Shown here: one piece after another, positions 9,250 to 21,404 of the stretch
Position numbering within the stretch: position 1 is the stretch's first letter
How the letters are laid out: each line of letters opens with the position of its first letter
Assembly (NCBI GenBank): GCA_052326545.1
Contig: JBKQML010000189.1
Coordinates: 1 to 34,029, forward strand
Direction: 5' to 3'
Origin: Dehalococcoidales bacterium
GTDB taxonomy: Bacteria; Chloroflexota; Dehalococcoidia; Dehalococcoidales; Fen-1064
Length of the DNA: 34,029 nt
Position numbers and translations under genes: made by a program
The notes under the pieces: generated by a model
The model's database searches: none
Told to the model about the DNA's origin: nothing
Seen by the model: the letters and a program-made list of their open reading frames with translations, nothing else

Positions 9250-10674
9250 ATGAAACGGAAGATGGATTATAAATGGGTCGCCCTGTCGGTCACCTGTTTG
9301 GGCACCTTAATGGCAAACCTGGATTTGACAATAGTTGTAATCGGGCTGCCGACGATTCTGCAGCAATTGCATGCTACCATCGTTCACGGTATCTGGATTA
9401 TCACCGGCTATACTCTGATGATGACGATACTGCTGGTGCTGCTCGGTCGATTGGCTGATTTGTACGGCAGAGTCAGGCTTTACAATCTGGGTTTTGCCGT
9501 CTTTACCGTCGGGTCGCTGCTTTGCGCTTTATCCCAGAACGGCGTACAATTAATCGCTTTCCGATTCCTCCAGGGTGCCGGTGCTGCATTACTCTACGCC
9601 AACAGCGGCGCGATTATTACCGATGCTTTCCCTCCCGATGAACTCGGTATGGGACTGGGTATCAATATCATGGCGGTGAATATCGGAGCTATTGCCGGTT
9701 ATACGCTCGGCGGGGTAATGATAACTTATTTCGGGTGGCGGTCAATATTCCTGCTTAATATTCCGATTGGAATTTTCGGCACGATTTGGGGATATTTGAA
9801 TCTAAAAGAAATCAGCAAAAAACCGGTCGGCCAAAAATTTGATTTTGCCGGTTCAATCCTGTATTGTGTCGGCCTCGCAACTATCCTGCTGGCCCTGACT
9901 ATCGGAGACCCCCTTTCAACCCGTAATCTTATTATTCTTGGTTGTGGCGCAGCATTTTTTGTCGCCGTAATATTTGTCGAACTAAGGCAGAAATTCCCAA
10001 CGCTTGATTTAACGCTTTTCAAGATCAGACAATTTGCGCTGGGCAACTTAGCCAGTTTTCTGAACGCAATCGCATTCAGTTGCGGCCCCTTTTTGAGGTC
10101 ACTATACTTGCAGTTGATACTGGGTTACAGCGCGGCTAAAACAGGTCTTTTGCTCATCCCGATGGAAATTATCATCTTCGCCATCAGTCCGTTCAGCGGA
10201 AAGCTGTCCGATAAATACGGCGCCCGGGTTCTTAGTTCTCTGGGTTTACTCCTGAATGCTTCCGCATTATTCTGGTTTGCCACATTCAGTAAAGCATCGA
10301 GCTACAGTGCTGTATTAATAAGTCTAATACTGTTCGGTTTGGGAATGGCGTTATTCTTCCCTCCCAATTCCAGTGCCGTTATGGGTTCTGTTTCCGCGGA
10401 GAAGCGCGGCGTAGCGAATGGAATCAGGATGACTCTGAATCAAACAGGCAATGTCTTCAGCGTGCCCTTTTCTTTATTGCTGATGACATTAGTGATGCCC
10501 TACACTAAACTATCTTTGATAGTCAGTAGTTCTCAATTGCTCAGTTCCAATGAAGGCCCCATTTTCATGAGGGCCATAAATCATGCCTGTTTTATCCTCG
10601 GGATAATCACATTAGTCGCCATCATACCGTCTTTGGGATTGCGCTTTAAAAAAGACCAGAAAGCGAGCGAATGA
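9250..10674 (+). CDS. MFS transporter, DHA2 family, paralog 2
   Basis: Same motifs as, and long identical blocks with, 2596-4023 (KMDYKWVA, GRLADLYGRV, DFAGSILYC, CGPFLRSLYLQLILGYSA, AEKRGVA). Confidence 0.93.
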   Translation: MKRKMDYKWVALSVTCLGTLMANLDLTIVVIGLPTILQQLHATIVHGIWIITGYTLMMTILLVLLGRLADLYGRVRLYNLGFAVFTVGSLLCALSQNGVQLIAFRFLQGAGAALLYANSGAIITDAFPPDELGMGLGINIMAVNIGAIAGYTLGGVMITYFGWRSIFLLNIPIGIFGTIWGYLNLKEISKKPVGQKFDFAGSILYCVGLATILLALTIGDPLSTRNLIILGCGAAFFVAVIFVELRQKFPTLDLTLFKIRQFALGNLASFLNAIAFSCGPFLRSLYLQLILGYSAAKTGLLLIPMEIIIFAISPFSGKLSDKYGARVLSSLGLLLNASALFWFATFSKASSYSAVLISLILFGLGMALFFPPNSSAVMGSVSAEKRGVANGIRMTLNQTGNVFSVPFSLLLMTLVMPYTKLSLIVSSSQLLSSNEGPIFMRAINHACFILGIITLVAIIPSLGLRFKKDQKASE

Positions 10675-17139: not shown

Positions 17140-17919
17140 ATGAAAAGAGCTTTTACAGACATACCTGAAGGACAAATGCATTATCGGACCGAAGGACAGG
17201 GTGAACCGGTATTACTGTTGCACATGGCAGTTGCTTCTTCGGACGAATTCACAAGAGTAATGCATATTCTGTCAAAGAAATACCAGGCGATTGCCCTGGA
17301 TTTTCTGGGTTTCGGAGACTCCGACCCTGCGCCCCGTCAGTACCAGATAATTGACCATGCTCATACTGTTATCAGTTTCATGGACTCGCTTGGAATCAAG
17401 AAAGCTCACATTGCCGGTCAATTCTTCGGGGCTGAGATTGCGGTGGAGGTTGCGGTAAATTGGCCCAGGCGCGTGAATAAATTGGTTTTAGCCGGCGCAG
17501 AATTCTGGGAGGAAACTCAAGCGATCGATTTAAAAGAGCCTGAGAACTTCACCACCACCGTGGAAATAAAAAAAGACGGTTCTCATCTGCTGGAATGGTG
17601 GCGGCGGGCATGCCTTTGGGGCGATTACTCACTGGATATACTTGAGGAACGGGTCATTGAGTATGTCAAGGCCGGGCCGAGAGGCGAAGAGGCACACTGG
17701 GCCGGTGGAGAATATAACTCGAAGAACAGATTACCGCTAATAACCCATCCGACCCTGATACTGGATGCAACCGGTTTTCCGCTACATTCACGATCAAAAG
17801 CCGTCCAGAAATTAATTCCTGACAGCAAGCTAACCACCATTGAAAACGGCCCGATGTATTGCGACCGGGCCATGCCCAAAGAATATGCTGAAGCAATTCT
17901 TAACTTTTTGAATTCGTGA
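17140..17919 (+). CDS. Alpha/beta-hydrolase-fold protein with non-canonical active site, paralog 1
   Basis: GEPVLLLH, IALDFLGFGDSD, nucleophile elbow GQFFG (no Ser), PRRVNKLVL, HPTLIL, IENGPMY where a catalytic His is expected. Confidence 0.88.
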   Translation: MKRAFTDIPEGQMHYRTEGQGEPVLLLHMAVASSDEFTRVMHILSKKYQAIALDFLGFGDSDPAPRQYQIIDHAHTVISFMDSLGIKKAHIAGQFFGAEIAVEVAVNWPRRVNKLVLAGAEFWEETQAIDLKEPENFTTTVEIKKDGSHLLEWWRRACLWGDYSLDILEERVIEYVKAGPRGEEAHWAGGEYNSKNRLPLITHPTLILDATGFPLHSRSKAVQKLIPDSKLTTIENGPMYCDRAMPKEYAEAILNFLNS

Positions 17920-17927
17920 GGTAAATT

Positions 17928-18593
17928 TTGAAATCAGATAATTTAGCAACAGCGGTCCTGGCCCTGGAAGCAACTGTGAAGCAACTGGAAGTAAAACTCC
18001 AGGTTGTAGAAGATATTGAAGCGATTAAAAAATTACAATGGGCTTACGGCTATTATCTGGAACACTGGCAGGAAGAAGAACTAATCGGGTTATGGTCTCA
18101 CCGCCCTGATGTATCTGTCGAGATAAACGATTTCGGACTGTTTAAAGGATGGGAAGGAGTTCAAAGCTGTTTCCATTTTGAAGACCACTATCCCGCCTAC
18201 GGCCACGCGAAAAAAGCGCCGCCGGAATACCTGCACATATTGATACCGATGGCCGGTATTGTTGACGTTGACCCGGATGGTAAAAATGCAAAAGGACGGT
18301 GGTACGGCTATTTCCTTGGGGCAATGCCCAGAGAGGGGCAAACCAGAGCCTTAATCGGTTGCGAGATTTGGGAGAACGAGTATATCAAAGAAGATGGAAC
18401 CTGGAAATTTATGAAACTCTTCTGGAGCGAGATTATTAGCAGCCCGTTAGAAGAAGGCTGGGTTAAAAAACCATCAATCCTGAACCCGCCGCACAGATAT
18501 AGTCCCCCCTCCGGACCTGACACTCATTTTGCTCCTTACCCATCAGGGTATATTTTGCCCTATCATTACAAGAATCCGGTCACCGGGAAATAG
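17928..18593 (+). CDS. SnoaL-like / NTF2-family protein, paralog 4
   Basis: RBS GAGG plus TTG; same motifs, ends LPYHYKNPVTGK. Confidence 0.85.
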   Translation: MKSDNLATAVLALEATVKQLEVKLQVVEDIEAIKKLQWAYGYYLEHWQEEELIGLWSHRPDVSVEINDFGLFKGWEGVQSCFHFEDHYPAYGHAKKAPPEYLHILIPMAGIVDVDPDGKNAKGRWYGYFLGAMPREGQTRALIGCEIWENEYIKEDGTWKFMKLFWSEIISSPLEEGWVKKPSILNPPHRYSPPSGPDTHFAPYPSGYILPYHYKNPVTGK

Positions 18594-18653: not shown

Positions 18654-19784
18654 TCATTTCTTATTGCGGTTCTTTTTCCAGGGTATTGAGAATAGTTCGT
18701 TTCTAAAAACGATAATTTGTATCGCCATCAGCAACATTATCAAATCAAGCACCAGGCTTTGGTTACTCAATAAAGGTCTGGCTACACCGAAGCAATTACA
18801 AACTTTTATATTGAGTTTAAGGACCAAAGCTGCTATTTTTGCGGCCGCAAAGCTGATAAGCAGTAAACCGGCAATACTCGCGCTTACCCTCAGGACAATA
18901 CCCAAAACCAGGAGAATACCGATAATAATTTCAAGGTAAGGGAGAACATGCCCGTATATTGAGCCTAACGTAACAGGTAATATCTTATATTGGTTGATTT
19001 CATTTATCAAAGCGCCGATGCTGTGTATCTTGGCAAAACCGGCAAAGATGAAAATACCGCCTAAAATAAGACGAAATATGAGAGATGTATAGCTGCTGCG
19101 CAAAGTTCTTAAGAGTGTATTTTTTAACTTTTTCCGATATTTAAACCCTAGCCAGACGATCCCGCCGATTATCGTCAGTATAATTATCGACACGATAATT
19201 ATGCCCAATATCAGCCATGCGGACCATATCCGGGAAAAACCGGCTGTCACTGTCATGTCTGAATTCAGTGTTAACGATGTTTCTGCAGAATTTGGGTTGG
19301 TGACATTCGGAGTCCATCCGTCAAATTTCCACCCTTTGGCCGGAGTGGCTTTAAGATTAATAACGGTTCCAATGGGATAATCATACTGTCCGACTGGGGG
19401 TAAGATATTACCATCGCCATGTTTAGCAATGGTTAGCACAGGAGTTATCAGACTAAAAGTAGCGGTTAGGGCAATATTACAGTTCATGTCGATCGTGACC
19501 TGATTCGCCGTGCTGTTAAATTCCGACCCGCTCCAGGATACAAAACGGTATCCCTGAACCGGAATTGCTTCCAGTGTGACTTGCGCGAGAGAGTCATAGA
19601 CATAGTAGGAAAAGTCGGATTTTACAGGTGTCCCATCTACGGTTACGGTGCCACCGTTACCACTGACAGTCACGGTCAGTGTAAAAGGGGGACTCGCTCA
19701 AGCTGATACCGGTTGAGTATTGACGATTGTTACCGTAAATAGTAGTAACAAGCAAATCAATAACTTGGTGATAATCTTTTTCAA
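18654..19784 (-). CDS. Candidate selenoprotein: signal peptide, TGA at codon 29, two InlB B-repeat-like domains, TM helix, MauE/DoxX membrane domain with CxC
   Basis: RBS AGAGG, TTG at 19784, MKKIITKLLICLLLLFTVTIVNTQPVSA-TGA(19698-19700)-ASPPFTLTVTVSG, in frame with ORF 18654-19673. B-repeats (LEAIPVQGYRFVSWSG, LKATPAKGWKFDGW); MauE (RLILGGIFIFAGFAK, LPYLEIIIG, CNCFG). The protein is well supported; the Sec reading is inference. Confidence 0.75.
19661..19681 (-). promoter_or_regulatory. Bacterial SECIS-like hairpin 3' of the in-frame UGA
   Basis: mRNA CACUGAC-CGUGACU-GUCAGUG: 7-bp perfect stem with 16 nt between UGA and stem, 23 nt between UGA and apical loop, and G at loop position 2. Confidence 0.55.
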
Positions 19785-19905
19785 TTTTCTTTTCCTCTAA
19801 CTCTGTTGGTGCTTGCCAACGGTTCAGGAATATGGTTAGGTAGATTATAACACAACAATTATTAAAAATCGGGAATCATCGTTGAGAAAGACATTTTTAG
19901 TTTAG

Positions 19906-19965: not shown

Positions 19966-20165
19966 CTTCTCAAATTTATGATATTCACTGGTGGAATATT
20001 ATAGTTTAATTAACATTAAGAGTGTACATTCTCTTATTCTTATAATACATTCTGAGGAGGTGCGAGGGTAACAGTAGCCAATAGTTCATCAATAGATTAT
20101 AAAATACCAATTTGGGAAACAAACTATCGCCAAAGGTAAATAATACTCTAAAAGGATGTGAACAA

Positions 20166-21404
20166 GTGAAAAAATCATTAATGGTTATCTTCACCTTTCT
20201 TATAGCACTCGGTCTAATAAGTAGTTCCCTGGCAGGCTGCACAAAATCGACAACAACTACCCAGGCATTACAACAGGCAACCATCACGATTGGCGTGGAC
20301 ACTCCATTAACCGGCGGAGCTGCTCCCTGGGGTTTATCTGAAATGCACGGCGTTACGCTGGCATGCGATGATTTTAATACCGCCGGCGGTCTTACAGTCG
20401 GCGATACCCACTATACTTTCCAGGTTGAAGCTCTGGATGATAAGTATGATACCGCCACAACAACCAATAACATAAATCAGATGATCTATACTGACGGCAT
20501 CAAATTCATGTTTACCTTCCAGACCGAAGGTTCACTGGCCCTTGCCCCGACTTTGACTACACAAAAGATATTGAATTTTACGGTCGTTAATGACGACCGC
20601 ATCATCGCGCAACCGGCAGATGCGTATACTTACAGAACGTATATGGGCTTTTCCGTCCAGGCGAATGATTACATTCAATGGATACAGCAAAATTATCCTA
20701 ACGCCCATAGCCTTGCCGTAATGACAACTAATGACACCAACGGTACCGTGACCGAGGCATATGCCAAGACAGCTGCTGCCGCGGCCGGTCTCACCTACCT
20801 CGCCCCGATTTTTTATGATGACGGCACCACCGATTTCACTCCATTTGTCACCAAAATGTTAGCTGAAAAGCCGGATATTATTTTAACCATCGGCGACCCG
20901 ACCGGTGATGTGGCATTAATCGCCAAGACACTTACCGGTATGGGTTTCACCGGTATCCATGCCACGGGTATCGTCGGAGCTTCTGACCTGTTAGGTGCCG
21001 GTGCCAGCCAGGCTGATATCGAGGGTATGTTAACCCTGAATATGCCTTTAATTCCCGGTGGACAGATATCCGCTGCTGCTTTAGGTTTACCAGCCAGAGA
21101 AGATGCCCGGTGGGGTGCTCATTATTGCTGCACCTGGGACTTCTATAGTGAAGCAACAATCATGCTTGACGCGATGAAACAGGCTGACAGCGTGGACCCA
21201 ACGGTTGTCAAAGCTAAGATTGATCAGCCCGGAGCTCAATTTACATATGCGGCGATAAACAACGGTATTGCCACATTTGGTTCCGCGGCCTCCGATGCCG
21301 TATTTGGTCCGGTAGTAGGTCTTCATCAGGTTACTAATTCCTGGGCAATCGATGTCGTTAAGAATGGCCAGGACACTATCGGCGCCATTATCAATCCGAA
21401 GTAA
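20166..21404 (+). CDS. ABC transporter substrate-binding lipoprotein, HAAT/LivJ-like
   Basis: GTG start after AAGGA; lipobox LAGC; ITIGVDTPLTGGAAPWG, DDKYD, DFTPFVTKMLAEKPD; first gene of a liv-like operon. Confidence 0.9.
   Translation: MKKSLMVIFTFLIALGLISSSLAGCTKSTTTTQALQQATITIGVDTPLTGGAAPWGLSEMHGVTLACDDFNTAGGLTVGDTHYTFQVEALDDKYDTATTTNNINQMIYTDGIKFMFTFQTEGSLALAPTLTTQKILNFTVVNDDRIIAQPADAYTYRTYMGFSVQANDYIQWIQQNYPNAHSLAVMTTNDTNGTVTEAYAKTAAAAAGLTYLAPIFYDDGTTDFTPFVTKMLAEKPDIILTIGDPTGDVALIAKTLTGMGFTGIHATGIVGASDLLGAGASQADIEGMLTLNMPLIPGGQISAAALGLPAREDARWGAHYCCTWDFYSEATIMLDAMKQADSVDPTVVKAKIDQPGAQFTYAAINNGIATFGSAASDAVFGPVVGLHQVTNSWAIDVVKNGQDTIGAIINPK

Follow-up and report, generated by a model that had tools for sequence, protein, structure and literature searches.

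A candidate family of exported Dehalococcoidia selenoproteins with selenocysteine predicted at the start of a B-repeat surface domain

In bacterial selenoprotein genes such as those of formate dehydrogenase alpha and SelD, selenocysteine (Sec) is encoded by an in-frame UGA and followed by a hairpin of consensus geometry, the Sec insertion sequence (SECIS), as summarised in a 2026 review (PMC13188914). The gene considered here lies on the minus strand (18654-19784) of a 34,029-nt stretch of DNA from a Dehalococcoidales bacterium (assembly GCA_052326545.1, contig JBKQML010000189.1, positions 1 to 34,029; hereafter the window), and it shares with those genes the in-frame UGA, the hairpin, the presence of selA, selB and selD in the genome, and a Cys within three residues in two relatives. 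From the sequence comparisons described below, the favoured explanation, a selenoprotein gene read through its TGA together with the mechanism proposed below for its product, is, taken as a whole, given a probability of roughly three in four. The decoding would then be canonical, and what would be unusual is where Sec sits in the chain, which fold carries it and that it is found at the cell surface. Known selenoproteins are for the most part thioredoxin-like or cofactor enzymes in which Sec is internal; in the known families Sec is an internal active-site residue of a thioredoxin-like or metal-cofactor enzyme fold, whereas in the window's protein it would be the first or second residue left after signal-peptide processing, in front of a B-repeat beta domain.

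Exported selenoproteins with a Sec/Cys pair and a presumed redox role have been catalogued before, as DsbA-like, DsbG-like, thiol:disulfide interchange and TlpA-type UGC proteins (PMC13188914), and the UxxC motif of such extracytoplasmic thiol-disulfide selenoproteins also occurs in some relatives of the window's protein. In the DsbA/DsbG/TlpA type, however, UxxC sits inside a thioredoxin fold, whereas the window's protein has no thioredoxin-type domain (no Pfam or NCBIfam match) and its partner Cys is 73 residues away. SaoB and SaoX likewise carry a signal peptide, are extracytoplasmic and were missed or split by gene callers, but their Sec is internal (e.g. position 72), with CU/TU motifs and an ATP-binding cassette (ABC) substrate-binding fold (10.1101/2022.07.06.499078); they also belong to another taxon and another gene neighbourhood. 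Tandem surface beta domains are known from the InlB B-repeat and Listeria-Bacteroides repeat proteins (PF18998, PF09479; TIGR02543), none of which is described as a selenoprotein. The membrane part of the window's protein resembles MauE of methylamine dehydrogenase maturation, and has the CxCFG motif that is typical of the MauE family. In that maturation MauD is the thioredoxin-like partner of MauE, and this pair is paralleled by MauE-thioredoxin fusions in sister genera; the window's protein differs from both in that the redox partner would be N-terminal, a B-repeat domain, and of the type Sec...Cys rather than CxxC.

Many relatives of the window's protein carry G-U-P-G, which matches the GUxG motif of 'hypothetical protein DG' (NF049953; PMC13188914). 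Membership in that family ('ribbon_DG') was considered and rejected, as four members of the candidate family gave no NCBIfam hit (E up to 0.1) and the NF049953 model did not match the locus, its best score elsewhere in the genome being 18.6 bits against a cut-off of 130. Table 1 of the review lists 119 prokaryotic selenoprotein families, and no B-repeat, MauE or DoxX protein is among them (PMC13188914), which agrees with an earlier note on the window, made by a model from the letters alone, that had not recognised the architecture among described families. A published description of the candidate family was not found in full-text searches of the literature; the 111-family list of BSepDB, with which it was not compared, may include it. 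In the account of BSepDB, Dehalococcoidia belong to the bacteria richest in selenoproteins, the gene numbers given being 49 and 46 (PMC13326102), and if the present reading is right, selenoproteome counts would be too low for one of the richest bacterial classes.

The gene across its in-frame TGA

Read from the TTG at 19784, the codons of the signal peptide translate as LKKIITKLLICLLLLFTVTIVNTQPVSA, after which come TGA and then ASPPFTLTVTVSG. The earlier note had pointed to a ribosome-binding AGAGG, this TTG and an intact 28-residue signal peptide ending QPVSA, with TGA immediately behind it, and all of these were verified on the minus strand. The features of the gene are the following.

19794-19798, minus strand: Shine-Dalgarno-like AGAGG, 9 nt 5' of the TTG start, as read in the sequence
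19701-19784, minus strand: TTG start (19784-19782) and 28-codon signal peptide by translation (n-region KK, hydrophobic core, ...QPVSA)
19698-19700, minus strand: in-frame TGA, codon 29, proposed Sec codon; TGA in this column at 17 of 17 aligned loci
19661-19681, minus strand: SECIS-like hairpin CACUGAC-CGUGACU-GUCAGUG, covarying and within the bacterial consensus
19449-19688, minus strand: B-repeat domain 1, residues ~33-112, by Pfam Flg_new_2 (two stretches); AlphaFold2 (AF2) strands over 34-112 with a predicted local distance difference test (pLDDT) score of ~90
19479-19481, minus strand: Cys102, the sole ectodomain cysteine (IDMNCNI), invariant in 17 of 17 homologues
19227-19439, minus strand: B-repeat domain 2, residues ~116-186, best Flg_new_2 stretch 117-186
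19140-19223, minus strand: transmembrane anchor, residues 188-215, by a hydropathy peak at 201 and an AF2 helix over 188-215
18717-19094, minus strand: MauE/DoxX four-helix membrane domain, residues 231-356, by Pfam, with hydropathy peaks at 244, 289, 313 and 351
18792-18800, minus strand: Cys329-Asn-Cys331 of CNCFG (329-333), on the loop that joins helix 3 to helix 4 of MauE, with a predicted outward orientation
18654-18656, minus strand: terminal TGA stop of the same gene, the frame being open from codon 29

The read-through product (18654-19784) thus has 376 residues, and a single gene would contain TGA in both roles, as the candidate Sec codon 29 and as the terminal stop. Selenoprotein genes can use TGA both for Sec and as a stop. 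Genome-wide, 994 stop-to-stop frames span 300 codons or more and 225 of them are terminated by TGA, which bears out the earlier view that the genetic code is not recoded as a whole. That view had been based on normal TGA stops at 10674, 17919, 22523 and 29402 in the window; TGA triplets do end at all four positions, but the one at 17919 ends an open reading frame (ORF), while the other three were found as triplets only.

Under translation table 11 the ORF is called from GTG 19673, which lies within the first beta-strand (MTVSGNGG...) and leaves the protein without signal peptide, so that the called start indeed falls inside a domain and lacks an export signal, as had been noticed before. The hairpin encodes FTLTVTVS, the first strand of B-repeat domain 1, and the signal peptide is modelled by AF2 as a helix over residues 2-21. 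An assembly error does not explain the TGA, since contigs from four sequencing runs of three studies all carry it without change (contigs show presence, not depth or strand), so that the sequence support on which the earlier note had made its proposal depend is there. The sole variant among the four runs is a G>A on the plus strand at 19650 in run X3, a synonymous change of GGC to GGT that lies 16 codons past the TGA and outside the hairpin.

The same truncation is found in public data. Close homologues in a collection of 5.8 billion proteins are all N-terminally truncated entries and not Cys forms: the short form of the protein, described below, is present as 165-180 of 230 residues, and the MauE-fused form as 339-340 of 376 residues in ~30 clusters (57-99% identity), each entry of which starts with the V of ...VTVSG. 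They are annotated as 'hypothetical protein', 'DoxX/SURF4 family' or 'TIGR02543 repeat protein'.

Conservation of the TGA, the hairpin and the Sec machinery

Sixty relatives were searched in six frames with the read-through protein as query, and matches containing one TGA were then inspected. Within the window's family the TGA form was seen at 17 loci in 16 genomes of six genera, always with the same layout of a start codon, a signal peptide ending A-x-A, zero to two residues, the TGA and the first B-repeat strand. When 401 genomes from across the class were searched with a profile, 13 loci in nine genomes from four other families could be added, again with TGA after the signal peptide. The resulting total of 30 loci in 25 genomes counts inspected loci only, ten further TGA rows of the class search being left out, and at every one of the 30 the reading frame continues through the TGA. 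Three orthologues at genus level, with 64-69% identity, have the whole B-repeat/MauE architecture and a TTG start 28 codons before the TGA; a fourth ends with its contig just past the TGA site. The remaining family members are shorter and consist of signal peptide, Sec, one to three B-repeats and a membrane anchor. A homologue at 63% identity with the same TGA is present in a record from a Dehalococcoidia metagenome-assembled genome (MAG), PMMG01000028.1. TGA forms outside Dehalococcoidia were not found in a 401-genome sample of the phylum (E up to 1e-12), where the TGA form was confined to two Dehalococcoidia genomes already known to have it, G000, the window's genome, and G255, and matches in other classes had no stop.

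The codon at the TGA site of homologues had been named earlier as the deciding comparison, and it came out on the side of Sec: TGA stands at the 30 inspected loci, Cys occurs at the site or within three residues of it in two non-lipoprotein relatives, and Gln, Arg or Trp was not seen among the homologues inspected. One of the two (L072) reads ...PVGAG-CC-DNP where its neighbours have ...PVEGA-U-GGG, and its genome (G298, 97% complete) is one in which selA was not found. The other (L103), from another class, reads ...VRA-IN-C, with Cys at +3 after the A-x-A site plus a second Cys. Most non-Sec relatives are lipoproteins with the lipobox Cys at the equivalent place. In family f10, two complete genomes of 1.4-1.5 Mb (G191, locus L092, and G137) hold a B-repeat homologue with neither Sec nor Cys behind its N-terminal hydrophobic segment (...LTAGHFPPWGIAVDVSISP in L092), and because of this homologue not all relatives can be said to keep an N-terminal chalcogen.

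Judged from these comparisons, the window's gene very probably belongs to a new, widespread and mis-annotated selenoprotein family. The earlier note had missed this membership in a large Dehalococcoidia family of the type signal peptide, Sec, B-repeat. If true, a family with dozens of members, spanning at least five GTDB families of Dehalococcoidia and with its MauE-fused form in at least 30 public metagenome clusters, would have been systematically truncated by gene callers.

Some members occur in more than one copy or type. Three loci (L078 in G409, L096 in G312 and L097 in G421) hold two to three paralogous signal-Sec-B-repeat genes per 3 kb, and the surroundings of Sec differ among these paralogues (CAU-G, CAURC, UPC); in family f88 these genes have thus expanded in tandem. 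The genus of the window has a second type (L047, genome G004) of 285 residues, which reads ...QPVCA-U-TGP..., contains a long insertion within repeat 1 and lacks MauE, so that fused and unfused forms coexist in this genus.

The window's hairpin consists of CACUGAC (19681-19675), the loop CGUGACU (19674-19668) and GUCAGUG (19667-19661). It has a perfect stem of 7 bp that begins after a spacer of 16 nt behind the UGA and a loop of 7 nt with G at position 2, exactly as the earlier note had it. The bacterial SECIS consensus, as given in the review, asks for a loop of 3-9 nt with G at its first or second position, a stem of 4-16 bp, a UGA-to-loop distance of 16-37 nt and a free energy of -7.5 kcal/mol or lower (PMC13188914); with 23 nt from UGA to loop and -7.9 kcal/mol, the window's hairpin lies within all of these published constraints. 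In a per-locus test that counted the contiguous stem only, all four constraints hold at 21 of 29 TGA loci, the window included, while a qualifying hairpin at the same place was found in none of nine Cys-type homologues. The background, taken as random in-frame positions in open frames of the genome, is 79 in 3000 (2.6%).

Conservation and covariation of the hairpin, proposed earlier as a check, were both found. The RNAalifold consensus of a DNA alignment of 17 sequences is the 7-bp stem itself, with pairing in 94.1% of 119 cells. Four of the seven pairs have changed on both sides and none on one side only, and none of 500 shuffles scored as high as the alignment in pairing or in covariation; in slid registers 17-48% of cells are paired. 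The pair formed by the third positions of Leu and Val is G-C in 12 sequences and A-U in five, with zero mismatches, and in L027 two amino-acid substitutions, Thr to Ile and Val to Ile, have turned a C-G pair into U-A. The hairpin of relatives in other families is GCUGAC-GGUC-GUCAGC, and L073 has an unrelated stem, GUCGUC/GACGAC, with the loop AGGUCC. Among instances of the peptide motif that encodes the stem, 30 of 34 behind a TGA form a 5/5 Watson-Crick stem (two of the four exceptions being unrelated frames), compared with 5 of 26 elsewhere; of those five, one is the contig-cut orthologue and two are one unrelated ORF entered twice. These counts are of locus entries, some of which overlap, and of related sequences, so that the figures are not probabilities. 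In the window's genome the motif forms the stem in one of ten instances, and that one is the candidate gene.

Synonymous variation is reduced in the same place. In the 22 codons that follow the TGA (+1 to +22) the pooled proportion of synonymous differences (pS) is 0.195, whereas the signal peptide has 0.476 and the remainder of repeat 1 has 0.465, as is expected of an RNA element that overlaps coding sequence. From these alignments, the hairpin behaves as a selected RNA element. As a SECIS it would be a clear case of an RNA signal embedded in the coding sequence for a conserved beta-strand, where compensatory changes fall on synonymous as well as amino-acid-changing sites.

An Rfam scan of 19560-19800 (E up to 10) gave no SECIS family, the coverage of this lineage by Rfam being uncertain, and yielded one chance match to a small RNA alone (13.1 bits). 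The idea that a GGUC apical loop is an organism-wide SECIS signature was rejected: a genome scan gave four candidates, none a recognisable selenoprotein, and no such hairpin is present at the genome's selD (RNAfold). The GGUC loop is typical of relatives within the candidate family only.

The machinery for Sec is present in the window's genome, with selA at 457.7 bits, selD at 369 bits and selB at 308 bits, the last cut by a contig end. These three genes are clustered on contig C4, of ~5 kb (loci L001, L011 and L016), outside the window, and selD, a selenoprotein gene in its own right, contains a single TGA, in ...RGAGUAAK, at the known Sec site. Among genomes with a TGA form, selA is present in 13 of the 16 of the same family and in all nine further genomes, 22 of 25 in total, and the same-genus genomes without selA (G002, G003, G005) have no TGA form. 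Taken together, these comparisons make insertion of Sec at codon 29 highly likely.

Protein architecture and proposed function

Domain scores lie above their cut-offs for both halves of the proposed fusion, which upholds the B-repeat/MauE architecture of the earlier note: Flg_new_2 (B-repeat, PF18998) scores 80.7 bits over two stretches against a cut-off of 23.6, MauE (PF07291) 63.2 against 27, and DoxX (PF07681) 30.8 against 23.6. The AF2 model has a mean pLDDT of 74, with ~90 in the ectodomain (residues 29-187). A Foldseek search of the Protein Data Bank with the whole model returned tandem beta-domain adhesins and pilins at template modelling (TM) scores of 0.14-0.27, InlB at rank 34; as a comparison of a model, this would back surface beta repeats and nothing beyond.

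The only Cys-type residues of the ectodomain are U29 and Cys102. There is no Cys within three residues of U29, and Cys102, the 'lone Cys' of the earlier note, sits just before the last strand of repeat 1 and is, besides Sec, the one Cys-type residue shared by all 17 family members compared. The 13 members inspected in other families lack Cys102, but 11 of them have a Cys at most three residues from Sec (UPSC, UPEC, UPHC, URC, UPC, UC, CAU, CGU), and the remaining two have a Cys in a 'P-C' loop. This constant presence of a Cys partner suggests either a selenenylsulfide/selenol couple or a two-ligand metal site, and the function would accordingly be sought between a redox relay and a metal hook.

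At the other end of the protein, the K/R-rich segments 216-231 (six K+R, directly after the anchor) and 366-376 mark the cytoplasmic side by the positive-inside pattern. The CNCFG loop (329-333) would therefore lie outside, on the face of the B-repeats, as helix counting had suggested earlier. CxCFG is kept in all MauE relatives examined, namely the three orthologues, the MauE-thioredoxin fusions and the public homologues. The fusions, found in sister genera (L032, L033, L036, L041, L052), consist of MauE (CGCFG), an extra membrane helix and a C-terminal CxxC thioredoxin domain (GCSSCE, GCPPCE, GCPACK), and by analogy they look like a MauE plus MauD-type pair in one chain.

In the favoured mechanism, translation would start at TTG 19784, and SelB and Sec-tRNA would read the UGA at codon 29 as Sec under the direction of the hairpin that begins 16 nt behind it and is built from codons of the first beta-strand (L-T...V-S). 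Signal peptidase I would cut after VSA, so that the mature chain would open with Sec (U-ASPPFTLTVTVSGNGGTVTVDGTPVK); by the A-x-A pattern, Sec falls on residue +1 or +2 of the predicted mature chain at nearly all 30 loci, and its placement at exactly +1 in the window's protein is more likely than not. The two B-repeat domains would then stand on the cell surface, anchored by one membrane helix that is followed by the MauE/DoxX four-helix domain. Sec29 and the invariant Cys102 would form a selenol/thiol (selenenylsulfide) pair, and in the window's genus the fused MauE, with its CxC loop on the outer face, may keep this pair in a working redox state. Since sister genera fuse MauE to a CxxC thioredoxin, the Sec/Cys module can by analogy be regarded as MauE's outward partner. 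Such a Sec-Cys redox pair serviced by MauE is put forward tentatively, at somewhat less than even odds. If true, the poorly understood MauE/DoxX proteins would be linked to a defined outward Sec/Cys client, which would make a concrete test system, and Sec would have the unusual place of first or second residue of a secreted, surface-anchored beta-repeat protein.

A wider picture is more doubtful. Dehalococcoidia surfaces might be coated by an unannotated class of proteins with an N-terminal Sec as a 'selenium hook', recycled by MauE in one genus. The hook would then be a free 1,2-aminoselenol on a non-thioredoxin beta domain, catalytic or metal-capturing, and MauE an enzyme that handles selenenylsulfides; these details are speculative to the same degree. 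If they held, this would be extracytoplasmic selenium biochemistry without precedent among catalogued families.

Alternative explanations and gene neighbourhood

A number of observations weigh against the selenoprotein reading or against parts of it. With respect to decoding, tRNA-Sec (selC) was not found in the window's MAG, which is 91.7% complete and in 272 contigs, the best matches of Aragorn and Rfam being tRNA-Ser. Thus, of the four sel genes that the earlier note had proposed to look for, selA, a truncated selB and selD were recovered and selC was not. It is, however, found above cut-off near selA in five of five better-assembled relatives, two of them of the window's genus, and because its distance from selA there is ~2 kb, the missing gene probably lies just beyond the end of contig C4. 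The SelB wing domain (PF09107) gave no match in the selB that runs off the same contig, and three genomes with a TGA form had no selA match (G007, 83% complete; G015, 92%; G018, 60%). The strict SECIS test failed at 8 of 29 loci, at seven of which the contiguous stem is not stable enough (-5.1 to -7.0 kcal/mol), while L050 fails the loop-G rule for its best-scoring fold. The shuffle statistics overstate independence, as the sequences are related and the hairpin overlaps a conserved peptide motif. Just two non-lipoprotein Cys homologues (L072, L103) were seen, the lipoprotein relatives being weaker evidence as an N-terminal Cys is common there anyway, and none of the sequencing runs in which the stretch was found is of RNA. 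With respect to the redox part, the pLDDT of ~50-65 in the MauE region means low confidence, and the proximity of Sec29 and Cys102 in the model would follow from strand order only and is not counted as evidence. With the read-through protein as query, any MauE match was obtained in only 8 of the 16 TGA genomes of the family; as most members are without MauE, a MauE relay cannot be the general mechanism.

The alternative that survives best accepts the selenoprotein and changes its function, with the N-terminal Sec acting as a soft-metal ligand at the cell surface, in a chelating hook together with the free alpha-amine and a nearby Cys (Cys102, or that of UxxC, UxC or CxU), rather than in a redox relay. 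An N-terminal nickel hook is found in Ni-superoxide dismutase. That Sec so consistently occupies +1 or +2 is what would be expected if a free N-terminus matters, the varying spacing of the partner Cys would be tolerable for a metal site, and the MauE/DoxX part has a weak NCBIfam match to HvfX ('Cu-binding RiPP maturation', E 2.5e-4, below cut-off). Furthermore, the exported selenoproteins SaoB and SaoX are proposed to be metal binders (10.1101/2022.07.06.499078). Against this, there are no metal-handling genes among the neighbours examined, the fusion to MauE, which elsewhere is joined to a CxxC thioredoxin, points to thiol redox, and UxxC and CxU are classical redox motifs of selenoproteins in the review's survey (PMC13188914). 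Metal binding in place of redox chemistry is therefore considered unlikely, though it is the most serious competitor of the redox pair.

It is very improbable that the TGA is a real stop, behind a short signal-like upstream ORF, with the B-repeat/MauE protein being made from GTG 19673. This is admittedly the output of every gene caller, and the close public homologues are all called from there. The called start, however, cuts the first beta-strand and leaves a membrane protein with its N-terminus outside but without an export signal, and several orthologues lack an in-frame start in repeat 1: within the aligned repeat there is none in L043, L049 and L050, and the first one comes at +54 to +71 codons in L031, L048 and L051. 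A downstream-start model would thus destroy the domain, since starts are absent or lie 54-71 codons in. The stretch upstream of the TGA is translated, as judged by the ratio of non-synonymous to synonymous differences (pN/pS) of the signal-peptide codons, which is 0.54 across 11 related pairs. Besides, the peptide encoded from behind the TGA up to GTG 19673 is conserved, the frame is kept across the TGA at the 30 loci, and TGA forms track selA.

Similarly improbable is that Sec replaces the lipid-modified Cys of a lipoprotein, with cleavage by signal peptidase II and a diacylglycerol on selenium. Most non-Sec relatives do have a lipobox Cys before the first strand (LVGC, FSGC, LGGC, LGC, SAC, VSC, GAC), and the window's VSA-U, like VAA-U and LAG-U elsewhere, formally fits a lipobox. 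Most Sec forms, however, have a longer polar c-region with Pro or charged residues, A-x-A and zero to two residues before U, and sites such as PVEAV-U, PVEAG-U, EVDA-U and VSGD-U resemble those of signal peptidase I rather than a lipobox. A C-terminal membrane anchor is already present in the Sec forms, and lipidation would leave the invariant partner Cys unexplained.

Read-through without selenium, by a near-cognate tRNA helped by the hairpin (a downstream hairpin can stimulate stop-codon read-through) or by lineage-wide reassignment, would account for the three TGA-bearing MAGs without a selA match, but it is the least probable of all, as TGA ends 225 of 994 long frames as well as this gene, the single TGA of selD is at a known Sec site, the three genomes among 25 that lack selA are incomplete, the Cys-Cys homologue comes from a genome without selA, and the hairpin fits the SelB-type consensus.

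The selenoprotein reading is thus preferred over these alternatives, and the surroundings of the gene can be set beside it. In the window, the neighbours (17140-18593 and 20112-21404) lie on the opposite strand; they encode an alpha/beta hydrolase, a SnoaL_4-like protein and a Peripla_BP_6 binding protein. As these genes also surround the orthologues L025 and L027, the candidate selenoprotein gene is a single-gene unit here.

The short forms have another neighbourhood. At five loci (L031, L035, L038, L039, L043) the gene order is Amidohydro_2, C_GCAxxG_C_C, Sec gene, TPR protein and TauE/SafE; the TPR gene follows in four of the four loci where the downstream ORF was scanned, and C_GCAxxG_C_C precedes in four of the five. 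The placement of the short-form gene between the C_GCAxxG_C_C 'putative redox-active' gene and the TPR gene is seen in three genera, and the C_GCAxxG_C_C family has selenoprotein forms itself.

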